In this document: in pieces, positions 4,131-19,341 of the stretch
Layout of the letters: every line of letters starts with the position of its first letter
Numbering within the stretch: the stretch's first letter is position 1
Assembly (NCBI GenBank): GCA_903842445.1
Contig: CAIMLT010000003.1
Coordinates: forward strand, 5,696 to 69,695
DNA from: an uncultured bacterium
GTDB lineage: Bacteria > Patescibacteriota > Minisyncoccia > Moranbacterales > UBA2206
Length of the DNA: 64,000 nt
Reading direction: 5' to 3'
Translations under genes and position numbers: made by a program
Notes under the pieces: model-generated
Database searches by the model: none
Told to the model about the DNA's origin: nothing
Seen by the model: only the letters and a program-made list of their open reading frames with translations

Positions 4131-4418
4131 TTATACATCAACATCAGTTATCTTCCAATTAACTCCGCTGGTTTTGATAATTTTAAACTTTGTTTTTTCC
4201 AGGATTGTGTTTTTTGCAATATTTTCTAAACCAAACTTAATATTTTCAATGTTAAGCTCATCAAAATGATTATCATGCTCATGCGCATGTTTGTGATTAT
4301 GCGGAACACTTTTGCTGCCAATTTCTAAGGAAACTGATTTTATTTTCCCCAATTTTTGCGCTAGAGCAATTGCCAAAACTTCATCAACTATTTCTTTGGC
4401 CAAAATGAAATCATGCAT
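4131..4418 (-). CDS. HypA-like hydrogenase nickel-insertion protein lacking the Zn-finger cysteines; His-rich variant
   Basis: The N-terminus MHDFILAKEIVDEVLAIALAQKLGKIKSVSLEIG aligns to HypA MHE...V.L.IG as recalled from memory. The usual CxxC...CxxC is replaced by PHNHKHAHEHDNH. The likely start is the second Met (MHD), which removes the overlap with dfx. Confidence 0.4.
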   Translation of the reverse strand: MHDFILAKEIVDEVLAIALAQKLGKIKSVSLEIGSKSVPHNHKHAHEHDNHFDELNIENIKFGLENIAKNTILEKTKFKIIKTSGVNWKITDVDV

Positions 4419-4419
4419 A

Positions 4420-4797
4420 TTATTTTTTCCATAACCCATGCATATTGCAACAGGCTCTTATCGTGAAATGTTCAGCTTCCAGAAAAAATTCAGCCACAGG
4501 ATCTGTTCCTGGCTCTAGAAATTTTCTGTATGCTCTATGCTCAGTAACAACCTCAATCCATTCAATATAATGTTCGGATTCCATTGGATGAAGAACACTC
4601 CCAACTTGAACAATCAATCCCAAATCGGTCTTTTCCACGATCGGCAAGTGCTTTTCTTGACCTTCTTCAATTTCTGTTTTTTCGACTTCCAACTTCATCA
4701 GTTGTCCACAACAAACTAGCTCTCCTCCACCGAAGCGAACAACTTCAACCATATTTCCACAAATATTACATTCATAGATTTGATTAAGCTCCGTCAT
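4420..4797 (-). CDS. dfx: desulfoferrodoxin (2Fe superoxide reductase)
   Basis: N-terminal desulforedoxin motif CNICGNMVEV...LVCCGQ plus a C-terminal neelaredoxin-type centre (HPMESEHYIEWIE ... CNMHGLW). Confidence 0.8.
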   Translation of the reverse strand: MTELNQIYECNICGNMVEVVRFGGGELVCCGQLMKLEVEKTEIEEGQEKHLPIVEKTDLGLIVQVGSVLHPMESEHYIEWIEVVTEHRAYRKFLEPGTDPVAEFFLEAEHFTIRACCNMHGLWKK

Positions 4798-4830
4798 ATG
4801 TTTTTTAAAATTAGTTAAAAATTAGCTTAT

Positions 4831-6090
4831 TCAGTGAACTGCGCAACTAATACAAGGATCGTAAGCTCGAATAAAAGCACGCAACTTTTTTTCTTTTTCT
4901 TTATCTTTTAATTTTAAAATTTGTGGGATGTATTCAGCAATGTCATCTTCGAGGTTCGAGAGAAATTGGGCAGTTGGAGTAATGATATTCACATTCTTCA
5001 CATAACCTTTGGCATCAACATCAACATGATAATAAAGTGTTCCGCGCGGCGCTTCAATGGCCGCAACACCTACTCCTTCGCAAACTTTATATTCTTTAGT
5101 TATAACCTCATTCAAATCGCTGTTCAAAAGCTCCAGCATAATCCGCTTTGATTCTTCAATTGATTGGATAACTTCCACCATCTGCGCCAAAATATTATGA
5201 AAAGGATTGTAATCTGGAAATGTCCAACCCAAACTTCTCAGATAGTTTGATGCATTATCTCTTAACTTCGCCCTATTATTGTTTATCCTGGCGATTGCTC
5301 CAACCATATAGCTCTGACCATTATGTTTGACGCGCTTAATCACTTCCTTCTGTTTTTGTAATTCTAAAAAGTTATTTTCAAATTTTTTAACTGAAATATG
5401 CAATCCCAAGTTAGAAATAACATCACCGTCATAAATCGCATATTCACCATTCTTACCCAAGGAAATATATTCGGTTACGCGAGAAAATTCCGGGATTTTT
5501 ATTCCTCTAAAAAACTCTCCCAAACTAAGTGCTATTTGCAGAATATCTTCAGAATCCCCAACCAGCTTTTTTAAAGCCTCTCTATCTGGCGCTTTTTTGA
5601 ATCCACCCACTTCATTGGTTAGCGGATGCACGACTCTACCGCCAACTATTTTCACAATTTCCATTCCATATTCGCGGATTTTAATCGCCATTTTTGCCTC
5701 TGCGGAATACTTGCTTATTAGCTCAATGTCATTATTCATATCTAAGAAATCAGCCAGCGACAAAAAGAAAAGATGCAGAGCATGCGAATGAATAAATTGA
5801 GCGTATTCCAAAAGCGTTCGCAATTTTTTAGTTTCGTATGTCACAGAAACCCCCATAGCGTTTTCGAGAGCTTTTATTGAAGTCAGGTTGTGAACTACCG
5901 GACAAATCCCACAAATCCGCTGAGCAATAAGTGGCATATCTTGATATTCTCGCCCAATAAGCACGCCTTCAATTAAACGAACTCCTTCCTGCACTTGAAA
6001 TTTAGCCGACTTAACGTCACCGTTGAGCACGCTCGCCATAAAGCCAGTATGACCCTCTATTTTTGCAATGTGGTTTATTTTTATCTTCAT
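4831..6090 (-). CDS. [NiFe]-hydrogenase large subunit, group 3
   Basis: 419 aa with N-terminal Ni-binding RICGICPVVH. It ends exactly at DPCISCAVH followed by the stop, so there is no C-terminal extension. Confidence 0.9.
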   Translation of the reverse strand: MKIKINHIAKIEGHTGFMASVLNGDVKSAKFQVQEGVRLIEGVLIGREYQDMPLIAQRICGICPVVHNLTSIKALENAMGVSVTYETKKLRTLLEYAQFIHSHALHLFFLSLADFLDMNNDIELISKYSAEAKMAIKIREYGMEIVKIVGGRVVHPLTNEVGGFKKAPDREALKKLVGDSEDILQIALSLGEFFRGIKIPEFSRVTEYISLGKNGEYAIYDGDVISNLGLHISVKKFENNFLELQKQKEVIKRVKHNGQSYMVGAIARINNNRAKLRDNASNYLRSLGWTFPDYNPFHNILAQMVEVIQSIEESKRIMLELLNSDLNEVITKEYKVCEGVGVAAIEAPRGTLYYHVDVDAKGYVKNVNIITPTAQFLSNLEDDIAEYIPQILKLKDKEKEKKLRAFIRAYDPCISCAVH

Positions 6091-6122
6091 AATTTAATTA
6101 TACTTTATTTTTTACAATAAGC

Positions 6123-7052
6123 CTACTCAAACTTGCAAACAGCTTTCAACGCGCTTAAATCATCCGGAGAAAGCTGAGGATTTTCCATGTTTTGATCAGA
6201 GAGTAGATAATACATAATCGATTGCGGATCCTCGACATGTCCAACGCCTAAAGCATGTCCCAACTCATGCACAATCGTCAGGCGCAAATCGGCAAGTTGC
6301 TTAAACTGATACAAGCTGATCCCCTTGCCGTCATAGAGCCCTTTTTCAAATTCCCGTGAGCCGCCATATTTATTTTTGTATGTCGAAACATTAGCGTTAT
6401 ATTCATTCACAACTTTTTGCTCTTTTGAAACTAAAGCATTGGTTTTTCCAGCCAGACCATTCACTTCTGTCCGCTCTTTTTCGAGTTTATCGTATAATTC
6501 ATTAATTGTCTTCTTCTCTTTCGCTAGATCATTATACTCATCCTGCGATCCGCTATTTTTATTCCAATCCGCGACAGCTTTATTATAGTCCCTCAATTTT
6601 TTTTCATAAGCTACCACGTTGGCGTCATATTTTGCCATCTTCTTTTCATAGATTCCGGCTAAGTCCTCATATTGATTAGCAATTTTTTGGTGTGATATTT
6701 CCAACTGGTCTAAATTACTCGCCAATTTATCCGCCGCGTTCGAGGCAACCTGCCTCTCATCAAAAATCAAATTCAGCTTAAACTGAGCATCTGGCTTATA
6801 TTCAAATAAATTCTTCCCCGACTGCGTTTCCCAAATTTTTTCCGCCTCTCGAATCTCTGCCAAAAAATTATTCGCACTCAAATCAAACCTTGGATCAACT
6901 ATTCCAACAGCATATTGAAACGGCTTGGCACACGGCAAACCAATCCCGGTAAATTCCGAAACGGTTTCTCGCACGGAAGTTTTGTTTTGCAAAATTATCC
7001 CCCAAGCAGAAAAGAGAATTATAATAATGAAATATTGAAAAAATTTTTTCAT
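6123..7052 (-). CDS. secreted matrixin-like (M10) zinc metalloprotease with a coiled-coil region
   Basis: N-terminal signal/TM segment MKKFFQYFIIIILFSAWGIIL. HELGHALGVGH zinc site with Met-turn SIMYY near the C-terminus. Its ATG overlaps the stop of the upstream small-subunit gene (ATGA). Confidence 0.7.
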   Translation of the reverse strand: MKKFFQYFIIIILFSAWGIILQNKTSVRETVSEFTGIGLPCAKPFQYAVGIVDPRFDLSANNFLAEIREAEKIWETQSGKNLFEYKPDAQFKLNLIFDERQVASNAADKLASNLDQLEISHQKIANQYEDLAGIYEKKMAKYDANVVAYEKKLRDYNKAVADWNKNSGSQDEYNDLAKEKKTINELYDKLEKERTEVNGLAGKTNALVSKEQKVVNEYNANVSTYKNKYGGSREFEKGLYDGKGISLYQFKQLADLRLTIVHELGHALGVGHVEDPQSIMYYLLSDQNMENPQLSPDDLSALKAVCKFE

Positions 7053-7942
7053 CTTTTTTTTCTTTTGTCTTTTTTTTCTCTTTCTTCCAAATCATCTCTG
7101 AGGCCAAAAATCTCCGTCATATTTTGAAACTGTTCATCACTCATCATATTTTTTAGCATCGCACGCATAGCGGTTACATTTCCAGTTTCCCGAAGTCCGC
7201 GACAACCTTGGCACTGCGCCCTAGAACTTGGGCAAACTGCATTGCACCCACCCAGAATCATCGGACCAAAACAAGGTTTCTTGTCTAACAAAAGACATCG
7301 ATTACCTGCTTTTTTGCATTCCACACAAACCGGCTGATCGGGCAAGGTGGGAATTTCACCTTTGAGTAATTTCGGGATACACTTCAAAAACTCTTCACCA
7401 TTGATCGGACAACCCGGAAAAACAAAATCAACTTTTACAAAATTATTAATCTCACGAATTTCCGGGTTAGTAATCCCTTGTAAATATTTATAGACATGTT
7501 TTATCGTGCTCACTCCTTCGTGATAATTTTTCATCTCGGGGATTCCACCCATCGCTGCGCAATTTCCAAGCGCCACAAGCAGTTTCGCCCTTTTTCTGGC
7601 AGAAAGGAGTGTTTTTTCATTTTCCTTGGTTACCGGATTTCCCTCAACCAAAACTAAATCCAACATTCCGCCATCATCCTCCTCATCTTCAATCAAGCGA
7701 AAATCCACCAATTCAACTTGCTCTGTAAATTCCAAAAAGCGCACGCCAAGATCGAGAAGTACAAATTGGCAACCCTCGCAAGAAGTGAGGCTCACAATCG
7801 CCACACGCGGTTTTCCAGCCTCGACTTTCTTATTGGCTATTTTTGCCACTACGACTTTTTTTGTCTTAACTATTTTTTTAGCTTTAACTGCTTTAGCTCT
7901 CGTAGGTATTTTATTTTTTTCTTCGATTACTTTTATTTTCAT
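7049..7942 (-). CDS. [NiFe]-hydrogenase small subunit, group 3, with a lysine-rich N-terminal extension
   Basis: AIVSLTSCEGCQ proximal-cluster motif and a C-terminal Cys-rich region for additional FeS clusters (CVECKK...C...CNAVCP...CQGC). Roughly 45 K/A/V-rich residues precede the conserved core. Confidence 0.85.
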   Translation of the reverse strand: MKIKVIEEKNKIPTRAKAVKAKKIVKTKKVVVAKIANKKVEAGKPRVAIVSLTSCEGCQFVLLDLGVRFLEFTEQVELVDFRLIEDEEDDGGMLDLVLVEGNPVTKENEKTLLSARKRAKLLVALGNCAAMGGIPEMKNYHEGVSTIKHVYKYLQGITNPEIREINNFVKVDFVFPGCPINGEEFLKCIPKLLKGEIPTLPDQPVCVECKKAGNRCLLLDKKPCFGPMILGGCNAVCPSSRAQCQGCRGLRETGNVTAMRAMLKNMMSDEQFQNMTEIFGLRDDLEEREKKDKRKKR

Positions 7943-8032
7943 AAGAATAGTTTTATTTGTTTTATTTCTCTTTGTATTCTAACAGATTTAACCTGATTTT
8001 AAAAATCCGGCAAATTACTCTATACTTAGCTT

Positions 8033-9193
8033 ATGGAGTTTGAATTTCCCCTAAAACAAAATAAAGTTATTTTAGCGCTTGGTGGAGAATCCGCTGGCAA
8101 TTTTTCGGTTTGCAATAAGGGTAAAGTTTATTTTTCCAAAGATTTTGGCGATTTACTGGTTGAAAGTAACTTAGCAAATTATAAAAAGGCGGTCTTGAAT
8201 TATCTGAAAAAACATAAGTTTAAGCCTGAAATAATCCTAATTGATCTCCATCCGCTTTTTCACACAACCCTTTGGGGCAAAATGCTCACTAAACAATATA
8301 AAGCCGAATGCATCCAAGTCCAACATCACCACGCCCATATTTTTTCCTCTATCGGCGACAGAATATTGCAATCTGCAATCTACCAACTACCTGATAAATT
8401 CTACGCTCTAGCCATGGACGGAACGGGACTTGGAACAGACGGGAAGATTTGGGGAGGAGAGGTTTTTAAAATTAGTTGTCATTCCCGCGCAGGCGGGAAT
8501 CCAGTCTCATATAATTCAGTTTATAAACTAAATTTACCCTTACACGAGAATACAATAAACTATACTGTCGAAAGAATTGGGCATTTGGAAAATCAAATTT
8601 TGGTTGGTGGAGATTTAGCAATTCAAGAACCAGCGAGAATGTTAATTGGAATTCTAAGTAAATTCCTGAACAAATCTGAAATTTATAATCTAACTAAAAA
8701 ATATTATTCCAAAAACGAATTTGAGGTAATTTATAGCCAACTTAGACAAAATTTCAATTGCCTCGAAACTTCCAGCACCGGAAGAATTTTAGATGCCGTA
8801 TCGCTGCTCCTAGGCTTTTGCGGAAACGAGAGAAAATATAAACATGAACCGATTGATCTACTGGAAAAAAATTCCACTAAACCCTATGAACTTAAGCCAA
8901 TTATAGAAAATAATGTTTTATTAACTACGCCGCTGTTTAAATATTTGATTAAAAATCTGCATAAAGATAAAAAAAGACTCGCCGCCATGGCACAGCTTTA
9001 TCTTGCGCAGGGACTACTTAAGATAATTAAATTAGCTGGTAATTTTGACATTTTTATTTCCGGCGGAATTGCCAAAAATAAAATTATTTCTAAATGCTTA
9101 GAATCCAAAGGCGCCTACGCCAGTAAAATCATCCCTCGCGGCGACGCCGGACTTTCTTTCGGACAATTGGTTTATTATTTATTGAATTATTAA
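8033..9193 (+). CDS. hypF: HypF-like carbamoyltransferase, Kae1-like C-terminal domain only (no acylphosphatase, Zn-finger or YrdC domains)
   Basis: 386 aa with LALGGESAGNF, VQHHHAHIFS (the HypF QHHxAH motif as I recall it), AMDGTGLGTDGKIWGGE and RGDAGLSFGQ. It converges on hypE with overlapping stops. Confidence 0.55.
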   Translation: MEFEFPLKQNKVILALGGESAGNFSVCNKGKVYFSKDFGDLLVESNLANYKKAVLNYLKKHKFKPEIILIDLHPLFHTTLWGKMLTKQYKAECIQVQHHHAHIFSSIGDRILQSAIYQLPDKFYALAMDGTGLGTDGKIWGGEVFKISCHSRAGGNPVSYNSVYKLNLPLHENTINYTVERIGHLENQILVGGDLAIQEPARMLIGILSKFLNKSEIYNLTKKYYSKNEFEVIYSQLRQNFNCLETSSTGRILDAVSLLLGFCGNERKYKHEPIDLLEKNSTKPYELKPIIENNVLLTTPLFKYLIKNLHKDKKRLAAMAQLYLAQGLLKIIKLAGNFDIFISGGIAKNKIISKCLESKGAYASKIIPRGDAGLSFGQLVYYLLNY

Positions 9194-10248
9194 CAAATCC
9201 TCGGAATCAACTTCCCTCTCGGCACCTCAATTTTCTTAAGACTCCCAATATTTGTAGCTAAATATAAGCCTTTTTTCTCATTTTCTCGATTGGAAAACTT
9301 TTTCACAAACCCAATAACCTTAGCTTCTGGGTTGAATTTTTGCAAAATTTTAATAACTTTATCGGCATTTTCTTTGGCAACCGTCGCCACAAACCGACCT
9401 TCGGACGGAAAAGAGAACTTATCGATTCCCAAAAGATTTGAAAGCGCAACTGTTTCTTTGGCAAACGGTAATTTGCTTTCTTCAAGAATAATGCGGACTT
9501 TGGATTTTTCGGAAATTTCATTGAGCACCGCAGCTACTCCGCCGCGCGTCGGATCCTTGCAAGCTGTTAGATATTTCGCAACGCTTTGAATTTCTTTGGT
9601 GAGCGGCTGGCAATCACTTTTGATTTTGGTTTTATAATTAAATCTTTTGGAAAGAAGTGCGACGGCGTGCTCGCCAAGATTTCCGGAAGTAATGACAACA
9701 TCACCCGGTTTTGCACCATTGTTTGAAATAATATTTTCCGCAATTCCCACGCCAGAAGTCGTAATTTCAATTTTGTCGAGTTTGCCTTTTTCCGTAACTT
9801 TCGTGTCCCCGGTAACAATCGGCACGCCAGTAATTTTAGAAATCTGCCCAATCGATTGCATAATTTTTTTGAGATCCGCGATTGGAAAACCTTCTTCCAT
9901 CACCACGCTCAAAGAAATCCCGATTGGCACAGCGCCCATCACCGAAAGATCATTTATCGTCCCACAAATCGCGATTTTCCCGATGTCCCCACCCGGAAAA
10001 AAAATCGGATCAACAATAAAAGCATCTGTCGTAAAAACCAATTTCGATTTTCCCCCTCTCCTTAATAAGCCTGCCTGTCCGGTAGGCAGGGAGAGGGCTG
10101 GGGTGAGGTCAAAAACCGCCCCATCATCATTGGTATTTTTCCATTTTTTAGACCTCGGAAAACTTTTTCTAATTTCCGCAATCAACTCTTCGGATTTCCC
10201 GCCACCACCGCCATCTTCTAGCTCCACAAATTCTTTTTTATTATTCAT
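9190..10248 (-). CDS. hypE: hydrogenase maturation protein HypE (carbamoyl dehydratase)
   Basis: 352 aa ending in the HypE hallmark PRIC, with VDPIFFPGGDIGKIAICGTINDL and VTGDTKV. An in-frame insertion of about 10 aa coincides with the palindromic element at 10068-10092. Confidence 0.85.
   Translation of the reverse strand: MNNKKEFVELEDGGGGGKSEELIAEIRKSFPRSKKWKNTNDDGAVFDLTPALSLPTGQAGLLRRGGKSKLVFTTDAFIVDPIFFPGGDIGKIAICGTINDLSVMGAVPIGISLSVVMEEGFPIADLKKIMQSIGQISKITGVPIVTGDTKVTEKGKLDKIEITTSGVGIAENIISNNGAKPGDVVITSGNLGEHAVALLSKRFNYKTKIKSDCQPLTKEIQSVAKYLTACKDPTRGGVAAVLNEISEKSKVRIILEESKLPFAKETVALSNLLGIDKFSFPSEGRFVATVAKENADKVIKILQKFNPEAKVIGFVKKFSNRENEKKGLYLATNIGSLKKIEVPRGKLIPRIC
10068..10092. repeat. 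24-nt palindromic element (stem cctgcct / aggcagg), copy 1, in frame inside hypE
   Basis: agcctgcctgtccggtaggcaggga matches the copy at 12971-12994 at 24 of 25 nt in the same orientation. It encodes ALSLPTGQAGLL. Confidence 0.6.
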
Positions 10249-10275
10249 AATTTGTATTTTTATACTTCCTGTATT

Positions 10276-11322
10276 TTACACCTTAATGAAAAATGTAGGA
10301 AATATTTTTTTGAGTTGTTTTTCAATCTCAAATCCCTCGCAATGCCGCAAAACTCCAAGATACGATTGCAAACTCTTACTGAAAGATTCTACAAAAATCA
10401 AATCTTCCCGTAATAATTTGTGTTTCTGAGAATTTTTTTTGAATATTCTTCTTTTCGTTTTCGTTCGCAAAATCCGGTAATCAGAAAAGTTGACCATTCC
10501 TAGAAAATCAATGCCACTTGCCAGAGTTTTCAAAAAAACCTTATTTGGATGCAATTCCAGCTTCAGTTCATTGGATAAAAACTTTTCAATTTTTGGAATC
10601 TGATTTTCAAGTAAGCTTTTATCTTCCGACAAAAACACAAAATCATCGGCGTAGCGGAGATAATATTTGGCTTTCAGTTTATGTTTTGCAAATTGATCAA
10701 ATTTATTCATATAAATGTTGACGAATAATTGTGAAGTTAGGTTTCCAAGTGGCAAACCTGTATAAATTTTATTTTTGGTGGTAAAACTTTTTATAATATT
10801 TTCCAAAAGATTAATAATATTTTCATCTGGAATATATTCAGCTAGAATTTCCAACAAAATCTGATGATCCATATTAGCAAAAAACTTTTTAATGTCGCAT
10901 TTCAAAATCCAGCAAGTTTTGATATTATTTTTACTGACAATATGGGCATATTCGCGGAATTTATCAATGGCTTTATGTGTGCCTTTTTTGTTTCTGCAAG
11001 AATAGGAATCGGCAATGAAAGTTTTGTCAAAAAAAGGATAGAGAATTCTATATATGGCATGGTGCAAAAGTCGATCGCGCACGCTGGCCTTGTGAATGTC
11101 CCTGGGTTTTGGATCATTGATTTTGAAAGCTTGATAACCGCCGTGTTCATAGGTATGATTGAAAAGATCGCAGTGCAGTGAAAAAATATTATCCATCAGT
11201 TTCATTGAAAATTCTTGCACATCTTTTCTGTTTTTCTTGCCTTTTTCGAATTCTTGCCAAGCCAGAAGTAAGTTTTCTAAACAAATAATATTCTCAAAAT
11301 TATGACTCAATTGAATTTTCAT
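10276..11322 (-). CDS. diversity-generating retroelement reverse transcriptase
   Basis: 348-aa RT with catalytic YADD (LRYADDFVFL) and the DGR-type domain-4 motif GLPLGNLTSQLFVNIYM (SQ in place of the group II QG). There is no maturase/endonuclease domain. Avd, TR and VR lie alongside. Confidence 0.85.
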   Translation of the reverse strand: MKIQLSHNFENIICLENLLLAWQEFEKGKKNRKDVQEFSMKLMDNIFSLHCDLFNHTYEHGGYQAFKINDPKPRDIHKASVRDRLLHHAIYRILYPFFDKTFIADSYSCRNKKGTHKAIDKFREYAHIVSKNNIKTCWILKCDIKKFFANMDHQILLEILAEYIPDENIINLLENIIKSFTTKNKIYTGLPLGNLTSQLFVNIYMNKFDQFAKHKLKAKYYLRYADDFVFLSEDKSLLENQIPKIEKFLSNELKLELHPNKVFLKTLASGIDFLGMVNFSDYRILRTKTKRRIFKKNSQKHKLLREDLIFVESFSKSLQSYLGVLRHCEGFEIEKQLKKIFPTFFIKV

Positions 11323-11323
11323 A

Positions 11324-11713
11324 ATGATACTTCTACTCTTAAAGCCCCCCCCCAGAGGAGTGCCTGCTGTAATTATAAAAGAAAAAGAAACTTATACCTA
11401 TTGGCTAGCTTTGCATCGCAATTTCCCGAAAACTGAACGCTATGGACTTGGAAGAAGAATCGACCAGCTATTCCTGGAAATTCTTGAACTCAGTTTTACT
11501 GCTGCATATTTACCGGCTGATCCAAAAATAATCCTATTGGGAAAAATAATTTCTCGTCTTGATGTGCTTAAATTTTTCTCACAACTCGCTTGGGAAAATA
11601 AATTAATTCCTTCTGAAAAATATCTGGAACTTTCCCAAAAACTGGAAGAAATCGGTCGAATGTTTGGCGGCTGGAGAAAAGGACTTTTGGAAAAGAAAAC
11701 TCCTGCCAAATAA
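11324..11713 (+). CDS. avd: DGR accessory variability determinant (Avd-like four-helix-bundle protein)
   Basis: 129 aa. YTYWLALHRNFPKTERYGLGRR and the C-terminal EIGRMFGGWRKGLLEK resemble the Avd / 23S-rRNA-IVS protein family as I recall the Bordetella phage Avd ending. It is oriented opposite to the RT; the start codon is uncertain because a C9 tract lies at codons 8-10. Confidence 0.75.
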   Translation: MILLLLKPPPRGVPAVIIKEKETYTYWLALHRNFPKTERYGLGRRIDQLFLEILELSFTAAYLPADPKIILLGKIISRLDVLKFFSQLAWENKLIPSEKYLELSQKLEEIGRMFGGWRKGLLEKKTPAK

Positions 11714-11720: not shown

Positions 11721-11736
11721 AAAAACAGTAGTTTCA

Positions 11737-11845
11737 GAAGAACACCTGGTTGTCATCATTCCACCTATTCGTATCATCGACAGAGTTGGCATTGACGTTC
11801 CAACCATCGTCGTTCCAGTTACAATTCACCGCACGAAGCACACCG
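11737..11845 (-). repeat. DGR template repeat (TR)
   Basis: Near-identical to 12211-12319. In TR-sense (minus strand) it carries A at all 20 positions where VR differs, and it translates in the VR frame to NCNWNDDGWNVNANSVDDTNRWNDDN. Confidence 0.85.
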
Positions 11846-12106
11846 GCATTCTCGAGCAAAGAGCCATCCATTCCACTATCCTTCGAATGCTCTCCGGATT
11901 GTATCGCATTTGGGACATTAAAAGTCCGCCAGCTTTTTGCACCAATTCCTGTATTTTTTTGAAAAGATTATTTTCCATACTATTATGCAAGGCTTGCCCG
12001 GCACAACTCTCGCGAAAAATATCTTAAAGCCATGACACAAAAGCCGTAACCGTTGCGTATCACATGAGTTCATAAAAAGTATAGCAAAAAAATTTGAAAT
12101 AAAAAA

Positions 12107-12189: not shown

Positions 12190-12867
12190 TTAAGCGGCAA
12201 CAGGAACTCGGAAGAACACCTGGCGGACAGCACGCCACCCATCCGTATCATCGACAGAGCGGGCACGGACGTCCCAACCATCGCCGCACCAGCCACAAGG
12301 CACCGCACGAAGCACACCGTTTTTGTCCCTGATGTAGAAGATGTTGGCATAACCGTTGTTCAAAAGAACGCCGGCTTCACCATTCCGCTGCTTCTCCATC
12401 TGAGAGAACATTTCCGATAAGGTAGTTTCGGCTTTTGCTTCACCACCTATCTCGGCGATGATCAGATCGTCAACCGAGGCTTTTTTCAGTCTGGCACAGC
12501 GAAGTTCCTGCTCACCGATAGGAGTCTCAATTTTGCCATCTTCGCCAAGAAACCACTTCGTGAAATTATCGCCAAGGTAACTGATTTTGACATTAGCCTC
12601 TTTGCTCGTATCAACAATAAACTTATCACGAGCGATAAAATTCACAATTCTTGCTGGAATAGTGACGGTGTTGATCATTTCGAGCAGAATATTGATTATG
12701 CCCTCTGACCAACATTTCTCCTTTCGGAGAAATTTTTTGAATTCCGCAAACCACACTTGGCATGCCTCACCAGATAGTTTTTCCGCCAAATCGCAGATTG
12801 CTCCCAACATTTCTCTTGGAAGATCCACAATCTTACGAACTACTTCACCGAGCATGTCTTTTTTCAT
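12190..12867 (-). CDS. DGR target protein (variable C-terminal C-type-lectin-like region); no signal peptide
   Basis: 225 aa. The C-terminal VR-encoded segment GVLRAVPCGWCGDGWDVRARSVDDTDGWRAVRQVFF corresponds to TR-encoded GVLRAVNCNWNDDGWNVNANSVDDTNRWNDDNQVFF. Confidence 0.8.
   Translation of the reverse strand: MKKDMLGEVVRKIVDLPREMLGAICDLAEKLSGEACQVWFAEFKKFLRKEKCWSEGIINILLEMINTVTIPARIVNFIARDKFIVDTSKEANVKISYLGDNFTKWFLGEDGKIETPIGEQELRCARLKKASVDDLIIAEIGGEAKAETTLSEMFSQMEKQRNGEAGVLLNNGYANIFYIRDKNGVLRAVPCGWCGDGWDVRARSVDDTDGWRAVRQVFFRVPVAA
12211..12319 (-). repeat. DGR variable repeat (VR) at the 3' end of the target gene
   Basis: 20 substitutions relative to TR, all at TR-adenine positions. The 13-bp fully conserved 3' block (ccaggtgttcttc on the minus strand) fits an IMH-like end. 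Confidence 0.85.
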
Positions 12868-13165: not shown

Positions 13166-14206
13166 TCAATTATCATATCTATACTCCACACTACAACTCC
13201 CCTCCCGTGAAACCATGCACGCACCTTGTGGATTATCCGGATTACACGCTTTCCCAAAAAGCGGACAATCTTTTGACGAAATAATCCCTTGCAAAACTTC
13301 GCCACATCGACACGCGCTCGGCTTGGTTTTTGTTTCTTTTTTAATTTTTGAAATCAAATCCCGATAAACAAATTCCGCATCATACTCACGATATTTTTTT
13401 CTAATTTTGAGTCCTGAATTTTTTATTTTTCCAAATCCGCGCCATGTGGCATCACTAATTTCAAAAACTTCCGCAATCATTTTTCTGGCTTTTGGATTGC
13501 CATCTTTCTTGACCAATCGCGAATAAGCATTTTCAACTTTTTTTTCGCCGGAAATAATTTGTGTAAGCAATTTATCAATCGCGATGAGCACATCTTCGCC
13601 GGTAAATCCGGCAATCACTTGCGGAATTTTAAATTGCGCGTAAATTTCTGTTCCGATAATCGCGCTAACATGCCCTGGGTTAATAAACCCATCAACTCTG
13701 ATTTTTTTATTTTGAAGCAGCGCTTCCATTGCCGGCGGAAAAAGTTTATGCGCAGAATAAACGATCAGCCCATTTCTAATCGCCCAAGCTGTCATCCCGG
13801 TCGTTGTTTCAAATCCCAGACCAAAAAAAACCAAATTCGGTTTTTCTTTTTTCATTTCGACCCCTTCAGTTATATCATAAACAATATTCACATCCGCGCC
13901 ATTTCTTCTGGCTTCTTCCAAGCTCATTAAATTTCCCGGAACTTGGATTGCGTCGCCATAAACCGCCACCGGAATTCCATGAAGCGCGAGACCAACCATA
14001 ACATCAATATCAGATTGATCAGTCACACAAACCGGACAACCCGGCCCAGAAACTAAAGTTATATTTTTTGGCAAAATATTTTTTATGCCATTTTCCGCAA
14101 TCGCCTCAGCATGCGTTCCGCAAAGCTCCATAAACCACAAAGGTCGCCCAATTTTTTCAGCTTTTTCGTGAATACTTTTTAAAAAATTTTTTAACTCACT
14201 GTTCAT
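13166..14206 (-). CDS. hypD: hydrogenase maturation protein HypD
   Basis: 346 aa with MELCGTHAE, GPGCPVCVT and a C-terminal CPLFGKACNP...GACMVSREGSC motif. Confidence 0.9.
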   Translation of the reverse strand: MNSELKNFLKSIHEKAEKIGRPLWFMELCGTHAEAIAENGIKNILPKNITLVSGPGCPVCVTDQSDIDVMVGLALHGIPVAVYGDAIQVPGNLMSLEEARRNGADVNIVYDITEGVEMKKEKPNLVFFGLGFETTTGMTAWAIRNGLIVYSAHKLFPPAMEALLQNKKIRVDGFINPGHVSAIIGTEIYAQFKIPQVIAGFTGEDVLIAIDKLLTQIISGEKKVENAYSRLVKKDGNPKARKMIAEVFEISDATWRGFGKIKNSGLKIRKKYREYDAEFVYRDLISKIKKETKTKPSACRCGEVLQGIISSKDCPLFGKACNPDNPQGACMVSREGSCSVEYRYDN

Positions 14207-14225
14207 TATTATTTTTTATCATCAC

Positions 14226-14339
14226 GACTTAAGCGTTCGTCCGGAAAAAGTCCGCACGTTCGTTTTTTTTGGCACCTTAAGGCTTTTGATAAAGCAAGAG
14301 AAGAAAAGTCAAAGTAATAAAATTACGCTTTAGTAATTT
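14226..14339. repeat. about 115-bp conserved intergenic element, copy 1 (between hypC and hypD)
   Basis: Roughly 80% identical to 19403-19520. The core is ttcgtccggaaaaagtccgcacRttcg followed by ggcttttgRtaaagcaagaRagaaaagYcaaag. Confidence 0.6.
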
Positions 14340-14345
14340 CAAAAA

Positions 14346-14564
14346 TCACACGCCAGCCTTAAGCTCTGTTTTCAAATACCCTTTCATTTCACTAGCATAA
14401 TCCGCATCCATCTTCTCAATCGCAAAACCCGCGTGCACCATCACATACTCACCAGCTCTCACTGAAACTAAAGAAATATTGATTTCTTTCTGGATCCCAT
14501 CAAAATCAACTGTTGCCAGTTGATTTTTGATAGAAATAATTTTTCCAGGAATAGCAAGGCACAT
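14346..14564 (-). CDS. hypC: hydrogenase maturation protein HypC
   Basis: 72 aa starting with the canonical MCLAIPGKII. Confidence 0.85.
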   Translation of the reverse strand: MCLAIPGKIISIKNQLATVDFDGIQKEINISLVSVRAGEYVMVHAGFAIEKMDADYASEMKGYLKTELKAGV

Positions 14565-14568
14565 ATTA

Positions 14569-15624
14569 TTATAATCTTGTATTATTTTTTATTTTCCCCG
14601 TAACTATTTTCCCCGCGTCTCTCACTAGTCTTGCTACCTCTCGATCAGTTAACACATAATCTAAAAACTCGCTTTTTTGGGCTTTTTTACTAATTTTTGA
14701 AGAAATAAAAAAAGTTCGGATATTTCTTGGATCAATTTTTTCCCGCTTGGCATCCGTAGTTTTAACATTTTTTATTATCTCATCTTCTCTGTTTTTATCT
14801 TCGTCTTTTAAGTTTATAATTCTTTCAAAACCTAAAGCAAAAAATAATTTTTCTAGATTTTGCTCTGGGGTTATGTTTTTTATTTGTTCTTTTATTTTAT
14901 CTAAAATTCCAAAGTCAAAAACTGCGACAGAAAGCTTTTTCAGATCAGATAGATCGCTCGCGATTTTCTCAAGATTATTTTGATCTGTGAGCGCCGCCGT
15001 AGGACACGCTCTGACACACTCACCGCAAAAACTGCAATCTAAAACTTTTTCATATGGCGTCCCCACAATCACATCTCCCGCGCGATTATTAAAGCCAAAC
15101 TTCTTCTCTGGACAAATGCTTATACACCTTCGACATTCCACGCAAAATTCCGAATTTCGAGAAACACACGGATTATCATTTTCCACTACAACGCGCGACC
15201 AATTGTCATGCACTAAATTCAATTCTTCTTTGCTCGTCATCTCGCCACGTCTCGGCACAAAATGAAAGTTTTCAATCCTATATTCTTCCGCCAATTTCTG
15301 GAGTTCACACATCCGATTTTTCTTGCAAGTCACGCATTTCCCCGCGTGATCCGCCCAAAGAAGCTCCAGATTAATCCGCCGAGCCTTTTGGACTTTTTCG
15401 CTTTCGATGAACACTTCCAAACCTTCGCAAACTTTTGTCGTGCAAGAAGTCACTAACTTTTCCGTCTTATTTGTTTCCACCAAGCAGAGCCGACATGCTC
15501 CTCCACGTGAAAGTCCCTCAAATGAACACAGCGTCGCAACCGGAATATTTTTCCGCCGACAAACATCCAGAATAGTTTCTCCGTTTTTTACTGTATATTT
15601 TTTATTATTGATTTTAATTTGCAT
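14569..15624 (-). CDS. HoxU / NuoG-N-terminal-like iron-sulfur protein (2Fe-2S plus two 4Fe-4S ferredoxin motifs)
   Basis: N-terminal 2Fe-2S cysteines (CSFEGLSRGGACRLC), then CVECRRCISICP and CSFCGECVRACP, followed by a C-terminal extension of about 120 aa. Confidence 0.8.
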   Translation of the reverse strand: MQIKINNKKYTVKNGETILDVCRRKNIPVATLCSFEGLSRGGACRLCLVETNKTEKLVTSCTTKVCEGLEVFIESEKVQKARRINLELLWADHAGKCVTCKKNRMCELQKLAEEYRIENFHFVPRRGEMTSKEELNLVHDNWSRVVVENDNPCVSRNSEFCVECRRCISICPEKKFGFNNRAGDVIVGTPYEKVLDCSFCGECVRACPTAALTDQNNLEKIASDLSDLKKLSVAVFDFGILDKIKEQIKNITPEQNLEKLFFALGFERIINLKDEDKNREDEIIKNVKTTDAKREKIDPRNIRTFFISSKISKKAQKSEFLDYVLTDREVARLVRDAGKIVTGKIKNNTRL

Positions 15625-16135
15625 GTTCTATAAATTTTATAACCTTATTTAATAAACCACTTACTGGCTCGTCAGATTTAAGAAATATTTTACTTTCCGG
15701 CATATGTGCATAATCACATCTCATCTTTTCATACTTTCTCTGTCTATCATGATGACATCTATTTCTTTCTCTGTTTTCAAATCGAATCCGCCTTTCTTTC
15801 TCATCAATTTCAAGAACTATCGTATAAATACTAACCCCATACTTCACTTTCCATGTCTCAAAAATCCTTCCCTCTGGTTCAAAGTTGAAAGTAGATTCTA
15901 TAATTACATCAATTCCGCGATTAATATTTTCTTCAGCAAGATCCATGATTGCCTTAACTGAAGGATACCCTAATTTTATACTATCCTCTAGTGTCGACAT
16001 CCTCATCGAATTATACATTGATTCCTTGACTGAATCCTTATGTAAACAAAAAATGCCAATCTTCTCAGATAACTTATCGGCCAAAGTAGTTTTTCCAACC
16101 CCAGGAACTCCGCAAATTATAATAAGTTTACTCAT
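15614..16135 (-). CDS. P-loop kinase / NTPase (AAA_33-like) of unknown function
   Basis: 173 aa with the Walker A motif ICGVPGVGKTTLADKL. It overlaps the hoxU-like start by 11 nt and lacks the HypB GTPase motifs. Confidence 0.55.
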   Translation of the reverse strand: MSKLIIICGVPGVGKTTLADKLSEKIGIFCLHKDSVKESMYNSMRMSTLEDSIKLGYPSVKAIMDLAEENINRGIDVIIESTFNFEPEGRIFETWKVKYGVSIYTIVLEIDEKERRIRFENRERNRCHHDRQRKYEKMRCDYAHMPESKIFLKSDEPVSGLLNKVIKFIEHAN

Positions 16136-16142
16136 AAGTTGA

Positions 16143-17375
16143 TCAGTCTTTTAATATTTCCAATTTATCCACTGCGTCGCGCGTTGCCACCGCCGCAAAT
16201 TTTCCCAAGGGGCAAAAAGTTGTGCTTTCTAGTGTCCACAAAATATCTTGCATTGCTTCCTTATCTCTTTGCGAAATTTCGCCATCTGCTAAACGTTCGA
16301 TAATCTCATTGAGTCGAAAAGTTCCTTCGCGACAAGGAATACATTTTCCACAAGATTCGCGCCGAAAAAATCCAGTCCAGGATAATAGCAAATCATAGAT
16401 ATTTATTGATTTATCTACAACTAAAATTGTCCCTGACCCAAGGGGAATATTATTATTTTTTCCATAGTCTAGTTTTTCATCTAATTCTTTTTCAGTTGCC
16501 AATCTTCCACTTGCTCCACCGACTTGCGCAAACCAAAAATCCTTCCCTCTCGGAAGTCCTCTGCCTAAAGTTTCTATCGCTTCACGAATTGTAATTCCAG
16601 TTGGCGCTTCAATAACGCCTTTATTTTTAACCGCACCACCAAGAATAAAAATTTTTGTGCCCGGACTATTTTTTGATCCGATCGCCGCATATTTTTTTCC
16701 CCCATTTTGAATTATGAAAGGAATATTGGCCACCGTTTCTGCATTATTTATCACTGTTGGCTTTCCAAAAAGTCCCTTTTCAGTTGGATAGGGTGGACGA
16801 ATTTTCGGCTCGCCACGATTACCCTCAATAGAATTTATGAGTGCCGTTTCTTCTCCGCAAATATAAGCACCGGCGCCAGAAAAAATTTCGATTTCTAGGA
16901 AATATTTTGATCCTAATATTTTTTCTCCCAGAAATTTATTCTTCTGCGCTTCCAAAATTGCATTTTCCAAAATATCTTTTTGCGTTTCATAATTTCCATT
17001 AATATAGACATAGGCTTTTTTTGCTCCAATAGTCAAAGCAGCTATAATTATTCCTTCGAGAAGTAAGTGCGGATTATTTTCCACAATCATTCGGTCTTTA
17101 TACGTTCCAGGTTCTGATTCATCAAAATTGCAAATAAAATATTTTTCTTTGATAGAATTTTTTGCCACTACCTCCCATTTCTGTCCAGTTGGAAAACCAG
17201 CCCCGCCGCGACCACAAAGACTTGATGATTTAATTTCCCCTAGGGCTTTTTGCTGATTCATTTTTTCAATGAATTTTTTTAGAGCGGAGTAACCACCCAC
17301 ACCCAAATAATCCTCAATTTTAAGTGGATTAATCTTACCCCAATAATTGGTCAGAATTTTTATATCTTTCATCAT
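16143..17375 (-). CDS. HoxF / NuoF-like NAD(P)H-binding flavoprotein subunit
   Basis: 410 aa with GRGGAGFPTGQKWE, FDESEPGTYKDR, GAGAYICGEETALI and C-terminal 4Fe-4S cysteines (CGKCIPCREG). Confidence 0.85.
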   Translation of the reverse strand: MMKDIKILTNYWGKINPLKIEDYLGVGGYSALKKFIEKMNQQKALGEIKSSSLCGRGGAGFPTGQKWEVVAKNSIKEKYFICNFDESEPGTYKDRMIVENNPHLLLEGIIIAALTIGAKKAYVYINGNYETQKDILENAILEAQKNKFLGEKILGSKYFLEIEIFSGAGAYICGEETALINSIEGNRGEPKIRPPYPTEKGLFGKPTVINNAETVANIPFIIQNGGKKYAAIGSKNSPGTKIFILGGAVKNKGVIEAPTGITIREAIETLGRGLPRGKDFWFAQVGGASGRLATEKELDEKLDYGKNNNIPLGSGTILVVDKSINIYDLLLSWTGFFRRESCGKCIPCREGTFRLNEIIERLADGEISQRDKEAMQDILWTLESTTFCPLGKFAAVATRDAVDKLEILKD

Positions 17376-18863
17376 TTATGTTCCGCTATATTTAACGGGC
17401 ATTGAATATTTACCAGATATTTCGTTCGTTAAGTAATAAAATATATTATCCTTATCTTCTTTTACAACAATATCACCAACAGATTCACGCCCAAGCATGC
17501 TTCTCCATCTTCCACTTTCTAAGTCAATAAAAATTTTCTTATCGCTATAGAAAATATACTTTTCATCAATTGGATGAAAGTCGCTTTGCTTATTTAATGG
17601 ATATTTATTTATCACTCTAAATACTGGATTACTTTTATTGTAAGGATCTTGAGAGATTATAAATACATCATTCATGCTATATTTATCACGATTTGGGTTT
17701 TTGATTCTTAAACTTTCCAAATCAATTCCCACCTCATTTGCATATACTAAACAATATATTTTTTTATTAGAATAAGTAACATTGCTACAATCATTTAATT
17801 TTGGGAAATTTTCTATGTTAGGTTCTATGCTGTTATCAGATACGAACTCCGCCACATTGAGAAGCACATATATCTTTCTATTTTTATCATAATAAAGCTT
17901 GTCTTTTTCATCATCCCAAGAGAATCCCTCTGGAAGAATTTCCTTACCACCATAGCTAAATAGCTTCTTCCTAAATGGAGCTTTTCTGTACACCTCTCTA
18001 TATTTTTTTGATTCAACATCAAATAAAATAAGCACCACATCTTCCGAAGATTCATCGTCATATTGACAGGTCAAATATTTTTCACTAACAGACCATTCGC
18101 ATTTTTCAGGACAAATATGGGAACTAGACTCATGCAACTTCTTTTTCGCCACACAGACATCTAAAATTGGCGTTAAATCGCTCGTCTTATATATATATTT
18201 CTCGAAATTAGGCTTGGTTTTCTTGAAATCAACATCAGCTAAGAAATACGATCCCTTGGGAGAAATAAACTCAAAAGCTAAAAAATTATGCAATTCTGAA
18301 TTATTTCTATCAAAAGTCCTGAGAACATTCCTCTCTGAACCGTCTATTTTACTCACCACAATTGAAGATTTGCTATTGCTAGACTCAACTCCGTTGTCAT
18401 ATTCAATATAATATTCTAAGTATATAAATTTAGCATCTGATTTGATAACATCGTTAAACTCGTACTTCTGATTATATTCTATTTTATATTCCTTCTCTTG
18501 ATTATACCCTGTCGATCCACTTAAGAGTTGTATCCCTAGAGCAACTATGGCCAAAGATGCAGAGCCAATCAGAAATCTTTTTTTAAATTTGTAAAAAAAA
18601 TCTGCTCTATATTTTAAGATTATAAAAATCAATGTAAGCTCAATGAGTAAAAATGAGTAGTAAAATAAAAAAAATGGTTCAAATATACCTCCGGCAACGC
18701 CAAACATATAAATAATTGTTCCGGCACCAAGAAGAGACATCTCGCCACCAAACACATCTCCTATCTCAAGAAGTAGCCCTGTTAGATAAACCACAGAAGA
18801 AAAATCAACAAACAGACAAATGTACACAAGCACGGAAAAGAAAAATATTTTTATATTTTTCAT
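17376..18863 (-). CDS. hypothetical membrane protein (four N-terminal TM helices plus a large soluble domain) within the hox operon
   Basis: 495-aa ORF with hydrophobic N-terminal segments. Its stop abuts the hoxF-like ATG with zero gap. Confidence 0.55.
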   Translation of the reverse strand: MKNIKIFFFSVLVYICLFVDFSSVVYLTGLLLEIGDVFGGEMSLLGAGTIIYMFGVAGGIFEPFFLFYYSFLLIELTLIFIILKYRADFFYKFKKRFLIGSASLAIVALGIQLLSGSTGYNQEKEYKIEYNQKYEFNDVIKSDAKFIYLEYYIEYDNGVESSNSKSSIVVSKIDGSERNVLRTFDRNNSELHNFLAFEFISPKGSYFLADVDFKKTKPNFEKYIYKTSDLTPILDVCVAKKKLHESSSHICPEKCEWSVSEKYLTCQYDDESSEDVVLILFDVESKKYREVYRKAPFRKKLFSYGGKEILPEGFSWDDEKDKLYYDKNRKIYVLLNVAEFVSDNSIEPNIENFPKLNDCSNVTYSNKKIYCLVYANEVGIDLESLRIKNPNRDKYSMNDVFIISQDPYNKSNPVFRVINKYPLNKQSDFHPIDEKYIFYSDKKIFIDLESGRWRSMLGRESVGDIVVKEDKDNIFYYLTNEISGKYSMPVKYSGT

Positions 18864-18888
18864 ATTTTTTATTGTTTAATAATTATTT

Positions 18889-19341
18889 CTATATCCACTC
18901 CGCAAAAATTTTATATATAGAGCTTGCTGTGACCCTCTCATAAACTTTCCTATTGACAATGACGATTGGTCCATCTCCGCAACGCCCAAGACAACTGATT
19001 TTTTTCAATCTTACTTTTGGATTAAATTTATCTCCAACTCTAATCCGAAAATGGTTTTCGATCTCCCGGATGACATTAGTTGATTGACCTAAATTGCAAT
19101 CGCCTCCTGAGCAAACCTTAATCTCCAAATTCGCCGGTTTTTTAGTCTCAACTAAATCATAAAAGCTAGCTGTTTCATAAATCTTAGTGATTGGAAATTC
19201 AAAATACTCAGCAATCTTCTGGGAATCTTTTTCACAGATATAACCAAAATTCTTGCTGATTTTCTTTAGCGCTAAAAGCAAATTCTGCGCTACCGGATCA
19301 AACTCTAGCAATATTTTTTCAACTGTAATATTGTTTCTCAT
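18889..19341 (-). CDS. HoxE / NuoE-like thioredoxin-fold 2Fe-2S subunit
   Basis: 150 aa with CSGGDCNLGQ...CLGRCGDGP cysteine spacing. Confidence 0.8.
   Translation of the reverse strand: MRNNITVEKILLEFDPVAQNLLLALKKISKNFGYICEKDSQKIAEYFEFPITKIYETASFYDLVETKKPANLEIKVCSGGDCNLGQSTNVIREIENHFRIRVGDKFNPKVRLKKISCLGRCGDGPIVIVNRKVYERVTASSIYKIFAEWI

Follow-up and report, generated by a model that had tools for sequence, protein, structure and literature searches.

The window analysed here, a stretch of 64,000 nucleotides from contig CAIMLT010000003.1 (assembly GCA_903842445.1), derives from a member of Candidatus Moranbacteria (Moraniibacteriota; Patescibacteria, Candidate Phyla Radiation, CPR), as the source names of its large-subunit homologues indicate, and carries a locus for a [NiFe] hydrogenase. 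Its proteins were called from a listing of open reading frames (ORFs) combined with Pfam and NCBIfam scans. A preliminary description of this stretch had named genes resembling hoxE, hoxF and hoxU, the small and large hydrogenase subunits, a set of hyp genes and several interleaved genes, and had regarded the locus as a mosaic in a CPR genome; all of these genes were found where it had placed them and the mosaic character was borne out. It is fairly probable that they encode one soluble five-subunit, non-bifurcating NADH-linked [NiFe] hydrogenase whose diaphorase part was inherited from an [FeFe] hydrogenase. The genes for the subunits and for maturation are as follows.

18889-19341, minus strand: NuoE/HydC-like [2Fe-2S] subunit, 150 aa (Pfam 2Fe-2S_thioredx, 5.5e-28)
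16143-17375, minus strand: NuoF/HydB-like core flavoprotein, 410 aa (Pfam Complex1_51K and NADH_4Fe-4S)
14569-15624, minus strand: U (the 'HoxU-like' protein), 351 aa, a predicted HydA-derived iron-sulfur (FeS) protein
14346-14564, minus strand: HypC (Pfam HupF_HypC, 2.2e-25; N-terminus MCLAIPG)
13166-14206, minus strand: HypD (Pfam HypD, 4.9e-123)
9190-10248, minus strand: HypE (NCBIfam hypE, 326.7 bits, cutoff 251.6; C-terminal PRIC)
8033-9193, plus strand: truncated HypF, 386 aa (Pfam HypF_C and HypF_C_2)
7049-7942, minus strand: [NiFe] small subunit, 297 aa, 3b delta-type (NCBIfam ShyD/HydD)
4831-6090, minus strand: [NiFe] large subunit, 419 aa, 3b-like
4131-4439 (probable true start 4418), minus strand: mini-HypA-like protein (weak HypA match in Pfam and NCBIfam, N-terminus only)

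The large and small subunits are predicted to be a group-3b-like pair. The best PDB match of the large subunit is the alpha subunit of the Pyrococcus furiosus/Thermococcus kodakarensis sulfhydrogenase (soluble hydrogenase I, SHI; 1.6e-60, 208.5 bits), followed by Acetomicrobium mobile HydL (168 bits) and MvhA (163 bits), the 3d enzyme HoxH (5xf9_D, 119.5 bits) scoring lowest in group 3. Its top NCBIfam models are sulfhyd_HydA/ShyA, yet it falls far under the equivalog cutoffs (228 bits against a cutoff of 880). The L1 motif is RICGICPVVH and the L2 motif DPCISCAVH, both invariant in 20 of 20 relatives; the latter had been called 3b-like beforehand, and PDB matches, NCBIfam models and the tree all agree. 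In 3d enzymes the HoxW protease removes a C-terminal extension of the large subunit, and the preliminary description had suggested a look for hoxW in the genome. No protease of this type is to be expected here: the protein stops exactly at the L2 motif (His419), and in all 20 clade relatives, too, the mature C-terminal His is the last residue. With no extension to cleave, the large subunit would need no endopeptidase.

Identity between large subunits is 72-88% across dozens of species of the clade, and the nearest full-length sequences outside the Moranbacteria clade share no more than 47%. In a neighbour-joining tree rooted on the second large-subunit copies of loci L117 and L153 (nuoE-nuoF-U-SSU-LSU, where SSU and LSU are the small and large subunit genes, 3d-like clusters), the Moranbacteria sequences formed a clade with 100% bootstrap support. 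This clade lies inside a 95-leaf 3b group (100% against the 3d-like outgroup), most members of which bear beta and gamma subunits. The preliminary description had allowed that the large subunit might group with one canonical subgroup whose standard operon already includes the interleaved genes; it does belong to a clade (100%) whose standard operon has NuoE, NuoF, U, hyp genes, an M10 peptidase and desulfoferrodoxin, but this is not the operon of a canonical subgroup. The authors of HydDB have also placed a Moranbacteria enzyme in 3b (PMC5037454).

The best PDB match of the small subunit is SHI delta (1.6e-35), whereas it reaches only 65 bits against HoxY. Extra FeS-cluster cysteines had been remarked upon in this protein; they are present but not unusual, as all 12 cysteines align with P. 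furiosus delta and correspond to the proximal, medial and distal [4Fe-4S] clusters of the normal 3b delta pattern. The conserved PRVAIxSLTSCEGCQ segment is preceded by a low-complexity N-terminal extension of 45 aa rich in Lys, Ala and Val (7808-7942), the length of which varies with species from 12 to 131 aa in relatives (L001-L081). Directly upstream of the small subunit gene at six loci, namely L003 (7612-8331), L008, L013, L025, L028 and L031, there are proteins of 211-239 aa without a Pfam match, mostly with 6-7 cysteines, which have no counterpart in the window. Genes hypD, hypE and hypF were not found at five of these six loci, the exception being L013. This family could be an extra subunit or an assembly factor.

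The partners of the pair had been described as NuoE/F/G-like as in 3d enzymes. They are NuoE/F/G-like and not of the beta/gamma type, but the 3d part did not stand, the NuoF-like protein being HydB-like and U having the features of a decayed HydA. The NuoE-like subunit is minimal at 150 aa, scores 87 bits on NCBIfam nuoE_fam and 72.6 bits on HoxE, and is the first gene of a conserved nuoE-nuoF-U block. The NuoF-like protein carries the flavin mononucleotide (FMN)/NADH site and one [4Fe-4S] cluster. It is not of the 3d Hox type; its best PDB scores are with HydB/NuoF (367.6 bits) and the weakest listed is with the 3d HoxF of 5xf9 (230.1 bits). Only residues 120-509 of the 599-aa A. woodii HydB and 116-507 of the 597-aa A. 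mobile HydB are covered, without the N- and C-terminal FeS domains (clusters B2-B5) of bifurcating enzymes, and the median length in 67 relatives is 409 aa. Schut et al. found clusters B2-B5 in all true bifurcating members, and A202 and M204 of A. mobile HydB to be Bfu-conserved near the FMN (PMC9304861). Where A. mobile HydB has GDPGAFMDR the NuoF-like protein has SEPGTYKDR, with T and K at A202 and M204; the third Bfu residue, F182, has no unambiguous position on it. Since the NuoF-like protein is core-only and T and K replace A202 and M204, the enzyme is probably non-bifurcating.

The U subunit is, as judged from its sequence, a descendant of [FeFe]-hydrogenase HydA with a vestigial H-domain lobe and no H-cluster ligands. 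In the PDB it scores best with HydA of 8a6t and 7q4v (HydABC-type), over the N-terminal F-cluster module, with a faint residual match at HydA residues 363-387. The best NCBIfam model is 'NADH-dependent [FeFe] hydrogenase, group A6', whereas HoxU gave 128 bits against a cutoff of 333; the match to A. mobile HydA is weak (83.6 bits). Four sets of invariant ligands, C33/C44/C47/C61, H93/C97/C100/C106, C161/C164/C167/C171 and C197/C200/C203/C207, would by ligand type hold one [2Fe-2S], one His-ligated [4Fe-4S] and two [4Fe-4S] clusters. Alignment with longer relatives showed that all three H-cluster motifs are lost and that ~230 residues of the H-domain are missing. The remnant lobe is nevertheless predicted to fold (pLDDT, the predicted local distance difference test score, 86-94), and a Foldseek search with the U model returned [FeFe] hydrogenases at the top over ~420 columns, against ~220 for NuoG-type proteins. 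Its mean identity among 24 species of the kind termed state C below is 60%, compared with 75% for the FeS module. Being both predicted to fold and conserved among these species, the lobe appears to be a retained domain and not debris.

A scan for relatives of U, with one genome kept per species, gave 78 loci, almost all from Moranbacteria or other Patescibacteria, and these fall into three states. State A has a HydA of 573-606 aa with the motifs TSCCPSW, MPCTSKKYE and EVMACPxGCxGGGG and no NiFe or hyp genes within 10 kb downstream. Of the 30 loci with a full-length HydA, 28 have the motifs intact and two, L057 and L070, do not fit the strict motif-3 pattern; the state-A protein of L053 reaches 765.4 bits on NCBIfam NF040763 'group A6' (cutoff 765). 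No [FeFe] maturases were found within 10 kb upstream of the state-A hydA genes of L053 and L069. State B has a HydA of 456-528 aa with xFCPS, SSCxAKK and ExMxCPxGCxxGGG, ending right after motif 3; most members keep the four cysteines of [4Fe-4S]H and the proton-relay Cys is gone. State C, to which the window belongs, has a U of 338-354 aa from which all H-cluster motifs have been lost by a 55-residue deletion, a Cys-to-Lys change and truncation. Both B and C have hyp genes and the 3b pair nearby. A degenerate U occurs with hyp/NiFe genes at 41 of 44 informative loci and a full HydA at 0 of 24; as the species are phylogenetically non-independent, the Fisher p-value for this contrast is descriptive only. 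Genes for triosephosphate isomerase (TIM) and fructose-bisphosphate aldolase (FBA) lie upstream in states A, B and C alike, which places all three at the same genomic position, and no metagenome-assembled genome (MAG) in the 78-locus set was seen to hold two HydA states.

When the FeS module common to all three states was placed in a neighbour-joining tree (short alignment, rooted on a Woesearchaeota HydA), B and C came together in one clade (87% bootstrap), the sister group of which was the state-A clade (82%); B was paraphyletic, with C lying inside it. Mantel tests gave distance correlations of r=0.65 between large subunit and U, r=0.66 between large subunit and NuoF and r=0.69 between U and NuoF (all p=0.0005), which is consistent with inheritance as one unit.

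The canonical partners of a 3b pair, the beta and gamma subunits, were sought by tblastn (E<=1e-3) with the beta and gamma proteins of outgroup loci from metagenomes, whose beta-gamma-delta-alpha order was checked with NCBIfam sulfhyd_ShyB/HydB, HydG/ShyC and AsrA/AsrB. There was no match in the window and 87 Moranbacteria-related loci (1.49 Mb; loci, not whole genomes). As a positive control, the 80 outgroup loci yielded both subunits in 43 cases and gamma in 56. The scans of the window itself detected no beta or gamma subunit, hypB, endopeptidase, nickel transporter or hydEFG. CPR 3b clades without detectable beta/gamma had already been reported by Jaffe et al. 2020 (PMC7304191). The NuoEF plus HydA-remnant module is not mentioned in that paper or in PMC10811913, and no earlier description of it with CPR 3b enzymes was found in the literature, subscription papers lying outside the search. 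In the large-subunit tree the ten outgroup lineages nearest to the Moranbacteria clade (L088-L110) are also without beta/gamma at the locus, at some of them with ample flank, e.g. L110; other 3b-derived clades may use unidentified partners too.

In the enzyme proposed here, a 3b-type large subunit and a three-cluster small subunit would be wired to an NADH-oxidising unit of NuoE, core NuoF and U. Electrons would pass from NADH to the FMN and the [4Fe-4S] cluster in NuoF and on to the cluster chain in U, and from U through the distal, medial and proximal clusters of the small subunit to the NiFe site, where H2 would form; the enzyme would probably be reversible. An architectural precedent is the NiFe-HydABCSL of A. 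mobile (PMC8880783). We infer a physical complex, NADH specificity, the direction of flux and a docking role for the H-domain remnant. The probable role is the re-oxidation of glycolytic NADH by H2 evolution, a role suggested because the operon lies between FBA/TIM and the gene for glyceraldehyde-3-phosphate dehydrogenase (GAPDH). NADH-driven H2 evolution can proceed only while ambient H2 stays low, a requirement in keeping with a lifestyle that depends on a partner.

As to its origin, a 3b alpha/delta pair with hyp genes would have joined a resident nuoE-nuoF-hydA operon, after which the [FeFe] site would have decayed stepwise. A wider proposal, on which belief and doubt are about evenly balanced, is that Moranbacteria hold a living stepwise active-site swap, A to B to C, on one NADH-oxidising scaffold and of an origin independent of the Synergistetes NiFe-HydABCSL; that for at least one clade of CPR 3b enzymes the missing electron-transfer partner has been found; and that the enzyme represents a new subclass derived from 3b, linked to NADH, not bifurcating and matured by a minimal system of its own.

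This maturation set most likely comprises HypC, HypD and HypE together with a HypF reduced to its Kae1 domain and a mini-HypA that has no cysteines but is rich in histidines. HypC (MCLAIPG), HypD and HypE (PRIC) are canonical in appearance. HypF consists solely of the Kae1-like C-terminal carbamoyltransferase domain, corresponding to about residues 401-754 of full-length HypF, and is 371-500 aa long in 28 relatives. A comparable natural truncation is reportedly HypF1 of Ralstonia eutropha. M8 (position 4418; MHDF...) is the probable start of the HypA-like protein by comparison with its relatives, which are ~90 aa long with 0-1 Cys, none of them conserved, and share a conserved AHDGHPEH loop. 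In the window the protein has no Zn-finger cysteines and the loop has grown to the His-rich PHNHKHAHEHDNH; it may be a minimal nickel-delivery protein. Since the whole clade shares these short forms of HypF and HypA, recent damage is not the cause of their reduction.

The 3b SHI of P. furiosus and T. kodakarensis (PDB 9e1j, 9e15, 9nez, 5yxy) gives the best sequence matches for both catalytic subunits, with similar subunit sizes, a three-[4Fe-4S] delta and the same L1 and L2 motifs (the P. furiosus L2 being DPCISCSVH rather than DPCISCAVH). SHI, however, has beta (AsrA-like) and gamma (AsrB-like FAD/NAD(P)) subunits where the Moranbacteria locus has NuoE, NuoF and the HydA remnant; its large-subunit precursors of 428 aa run four residues past the His, whereas those of Moranbacteria have no extension, and it is without the Lys-rich N-terminal extension of the Moranbacteria small subunit. 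The closest functional analogy is with 3d HoxEFUYH/HoxFUYH (PDB 5xf9), an NADH-linked, non-bifurcating soluble enzyme with a NuoE/F/G-type diaphorase. Its HoxY is a single-cluster protein of ~180 aa, HoxU has ~240 aa and no H-domain remnant, and HoxH is longer (468 aa in 5xf9) than the 419-aa Moranbacteria large subunit.

Closest in design is the A. mobile NiFe-HydABCSL (NiFe-Bfu; PDB 7t2r; PMC8880783, PMC9304861), in which a group-3 S/L pair likewise sits on homologues of HydA, HydB and HydC and HydA has lost the H-cluster. The four-Cys site of state B is where A. mobile HydA has a [4Fe-4S] cluster replacing the H-cluster, a site gone in state C. The two nevertheless appear to be of independent origin, U being sister to Moranbacteria HydA; moreover A. 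mobile HydS is a single-cluster protein of 179 aa whereas the Moranbacteria small subunit is of the three-cluster 3b type, and A. mobile HydB has B2-B5 and the Bfu residues whereas the Moranbacteria NuoF has neither. The trimeric NADH-dependent [FeFe] hydrogenases (NF040763 'group A6') have the same nuoE-nuoF-hydA order with minimal NuoE and NuoF, and the whole of their HydA N-terminal FeS module is shared by U of the window. They differ in that U is without H-cluster motifs and catalysis would fall to the added [NiFe] pair, which comes with hyp genes. Syntrophomonas wolfei Hyd1ABC is a non-bifurcating HydABC homologue (cited in PMC9304861).

Several observations weigh against a single combined enzyme or against the history proposed for it. 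Monophyly of state C has a bootstrap value of only 18%, the trees being neighbour-joining on short alignments, and the Fisher p-value for the association of degenerate U with NiFe genes has the descriptive character noted above. Four loci with a short U depart from the pattern. In L021, nuoE, nuoF and a short U are followed by desulfoferrodoxin and GAPDH, and hyp and NiFe genes are missing downstream. In L005 and L006 U lies apart from the rest of the locus, in L006 beside a type I restriction-modification system; it also stands alone in L007, although there the downstream flank is too short to judge. The searches covered loci only, and genes for beta/gamma, HypB, a protease or HydEFG may be present in other parts of the genomes. 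State C is without the [4Fe-4S] relay of state B and A. mobile, which makes the final hop from U to the small subunit conjectural. Lastly, Valentin-Alvarado et al. 2024 call Moranbacteria 3b loci P. furiosus-like in arrangement (PMC10811913); their description may conflict with the loci examined here, or may concern other genomes.

Part of this evidence would suit an arrangement of two enzymes side by side, in which the 3b pair uses beta/gamma or another partner encoded elsewhere, or ferredoxin, and NuoE-NuoF-U is a separate NADH-dependent oxidoreductase, the relic of a defunct [FeFe] hydrogenase. L021 and the detached U of L005 and L006 are in keeping with such an arrangement. It also accords with the presence of at least two transcription units, hypF being opposite and divergent from the small subunit gene, with the lack of an identifiable partner at the nearest outgroup large-subunit loci and with the CPR 3b enzymes of Jaffe et al. 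2020 (PMC7304191). It is nonetheless thought improbable, as H-cluster loss is tied to the presence of NiFe genes (41/44 against 0/24), the NiFe and NuoF/U modules co-diverge, gene order has been kept in ~45 species despite insertions and beta/gamma found no match in 1.49 Mb of related sequence. A HydA without a catalytic site yet with intact relay clusters has no obvious solo function, and A. mobile HydABCSL provides a precedent for a combined enzyme (PMC8880783). The same precedent, with its HydA-like, HydB-like, HydC-like, S and L architecture, would also allow an electron-bifurcating hydrogenase that makes H2 from NADH and ferredoxin in the manner of HydABC or NiFe-HydABCSL, as proposed for CPR 3b complexes by Valentin-Alvarado et al. 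2024 (PMC10811913), and the best PDB matches of NuoF are indeed bifurcating HydB proteins. Against this are the core-only 410-aa NuoF without B2-B5 (PMC9304861), the T and K at A202 and M204, the minimal 150-aa NuoE and a state-A ancestor type that fits the 'NADH-dependent' group A6 of NCBIfam, so that bifurcation seems a distinctly unlikely property of this enzyme.

There is little to recommend the idea that the locus is decaying, its operon broken by insertions and its hydrogenase non-functional in this genome. Three genome-specific insertions, palindromic mini-insertions inside hypE and hypF, truncated or atypical maturation genes and further break-up in the closest species-level relatives could all be read in that sense. 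However, all ORFs are intact and the metal ligands are complete in both hydrogenase subunits, U, NuoE, NuoF, HypC, HypD and HypE; the large subunit is 72-88% identical over dozens of species with invariant motifs; the inserts are co-oriented with gaps or overlaps of 0-27 nt, compatible with read-through; and truncated HypF and mini-HypA are found clade-wide. A chimera of assembly or binning, a chimeric assembly having been named in the preliminary description as grounds for refutation, is scarcely credible. The sequence is metagenome-derived and local GC content rises to ~0.42 around a retroelement in the locus, but more than 40 species-level MAGs and independent assemblies of relatives from ENA, JGI, NCBI and Logan show the same gene skeleton, the window has a negative GC skew throughout and the flanks (GT2-GalT-...-TIM-FBA; GAPDH-amidohydrolase) match those of relatives.

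If a single NADH-linked enzyme is accepted, several consequences would follow. CPR 3b hydrogenases have been widely reported, for some of them with the partner unknown (Jaffe et al. 2020), and a partner can now be suggested for a class-level lineage. The predicted cofactor would move from NADPH/polysulfide to NADH, and H2 production would be tied directly to the recycling of glycolytic NADH in organisms without respiration. The three-state series would represent rare surviving intermediates of an exchange of catalytic modules between the unrelated [FeFe] and [NiFe] classes, of relevance to the evolution of modular redox enzymes and the engineering of hybrid hydrogenases. That the locus does without HypB and a protease, and has HypF only as a Kae1 domain and HypA without cysteines, also suggests a lower bound for [NiFe] cofactor assembly.

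The other genes within the locus and its flanks, the latter in conserved synteny, are listed next.

17376-18863, minus strand: 495-aa multi-transmembrane protein (no Pfam family)
15614-16135, minus strand: P-loop kinase, AAA_33/Zeta-toxin-like, 173 aa (Pfam)
12190-12867, minus strand: target protein of a diversity-generating retroelement (DGR), 225 aa, with a C-terminal variable repeat (VR) at 12208-12320
11734-11846, minus strand: DGR template repeat (TR), from the TR/VR repeat
11324-11713, plus strand: Avd, DGR accessory protein (Pfam bAvd, 4e-14)
10276-11322, minus strand: DGR reverse transcriptase (RT; Pfam RVT_1, 1.8e-26)
6123-7052, minus strand: M10 (matrixin-like) zinc peptidase, membrane-anchored (Pfam Peptidase_M10)
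4420-4797, minus strand: desulfoferrodoxin (Dfx), a 2Fe superoxide reductase (Pfam Desulfoferrod_N and Desulfoferrodox)
20447-21211, minus strand: triosephosphate isomerase, upstream flank
19566-20429, minus strand: class II fructose-bisphosphate aldolase, upstream flank
3097-4095, minus strand: GAPDH, downstream flank
1518-3092, minus strand: amidohydrolase, downstream flank

The standard order in the clade is TIM-FBA-nuoE-nuoF-U-hypC-hypD-hypE-hypF(opposite)-SSU-M10-LSU-(Dfx)-hypA-GAPDH-amidohydrolase, and it has been kept across ~45 species despite frequent insertions. The locus of the window had been seen as fragmented by unrelated insertions, which is true of the 495-aa protein, the kinase and the DGR; these are the only genome-specific insertions. 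The opposite orientation of hypF, the M10 peptidase and desulfoferrodoxin are not insertions, because they recur at the same positions clade-wide: hypF is on the opposite strand throughout the clade, the peptidase gene lies between the two hydrogenase subunit genes at most NiFe loci and in the window is translationally coupled to the small subunit gene, its start overlapping the stop of that gene (ATGA), and desulfoferrodoxin is frequent at its position in many relatives. The M10 family is small and restricted to Patescibacteria. A hydrogenase-specific function was considered for it and rejected as a property of the family, distant homologues being found in unrelated contexts.

The 495-aa protein lies between nuoE and nuoF with a 0-nt gap to the nuoF start and was not seen at that junction in the other surveyed loci. 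The kinase, between nuoF and U, overlaps the U start by 11 nt and occurs in the window only among the loci surveyed, and the DGR cassette lies between hypD and hypE. As the inserted genes are co-oriented and closely packed, with gaps of 0-27 nt or overlaps, they need not break transcription. In the closest relative on a long contig there are 1051-aa and 181-aa ORFs at the nuoF/U junction, a PF05635 gene at hypD/hypE, TrmB and a 372-aa ORF at hypE/hypF and four ~500-aa ORFs between the M10 and large subunit genes, these inserts being backed by independent assemblies. The 495-aa protein is not a shared insert, having no similarity to the 1051-aa insert of this relative, and the PF05635 gene was likewise discarded as a counterpart of Avd, to which it is not homologous. 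The locus holds at least two transcription units, with hypF on the plus strand and divergent from the small subunit gene; a promoter and terminator scan gave counts modestly above those of shuffled sequences and did not separate the units. An Rfam scan of the entire window gave zero matches.

The DGR is real: of the 22 differences between TR and VR, 20 fall at TR adenines and alter 20 of the 28 adenines in TR, and only codon positions 1 and 2 are affected. The target protein matched no Pfam or NCBIfam family. The element resembles CPR and BPP-1-type DGRs in its RT, Avd, adenine-specific TR/VR pair and VR at the C-terminus of the target, and is unlike them in that Avd is divergent from RT and the cassette lies within a hydrogenase operon. 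The start codons of Avd and RT are 2 nt apart; the divergent layout is also seen in L021, L049 and L081. In L081, L049, L048, L043, L046 and L021, cassettes with divergent Avd and RT are found at other junctions of this locus, a recurrence that points either to a mobile cassette or to a hotspot where insertions are tolerated.

GC-rich perfect palindromes occur in-frame at 8480-8501 in hypF and 10070-10090 in hypE; CATTCCCGCGCAGGCGGGAATC encodes the peptide HSRAGGNPV and CCTGCCTACCGGACAGGCAGG the peptide LPTGQAG. The same hairpin cores are found sporadically in other Moranbacteria loci (L020, L022 and L071; L016 and L017). They were judged not to form an abundant repeat family, as each has a single copy in the window and turns up in 2-3 of 82 loci.

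The remainder of the window is housekeeping in nature, with a ribosomal protein cluster, EF-Tu/EF-G, SecY, RecA etc. Between a VTT-domain gene and TIM there is a 1138-aa protein with an LCAT/PGAP1-like alpha/beta-hydrolase core (21664-25080). The closest relative carries no more than a small Sm_multidrug_ex gene there, which makes the 1138-aa protein another lineage-specific insertion.

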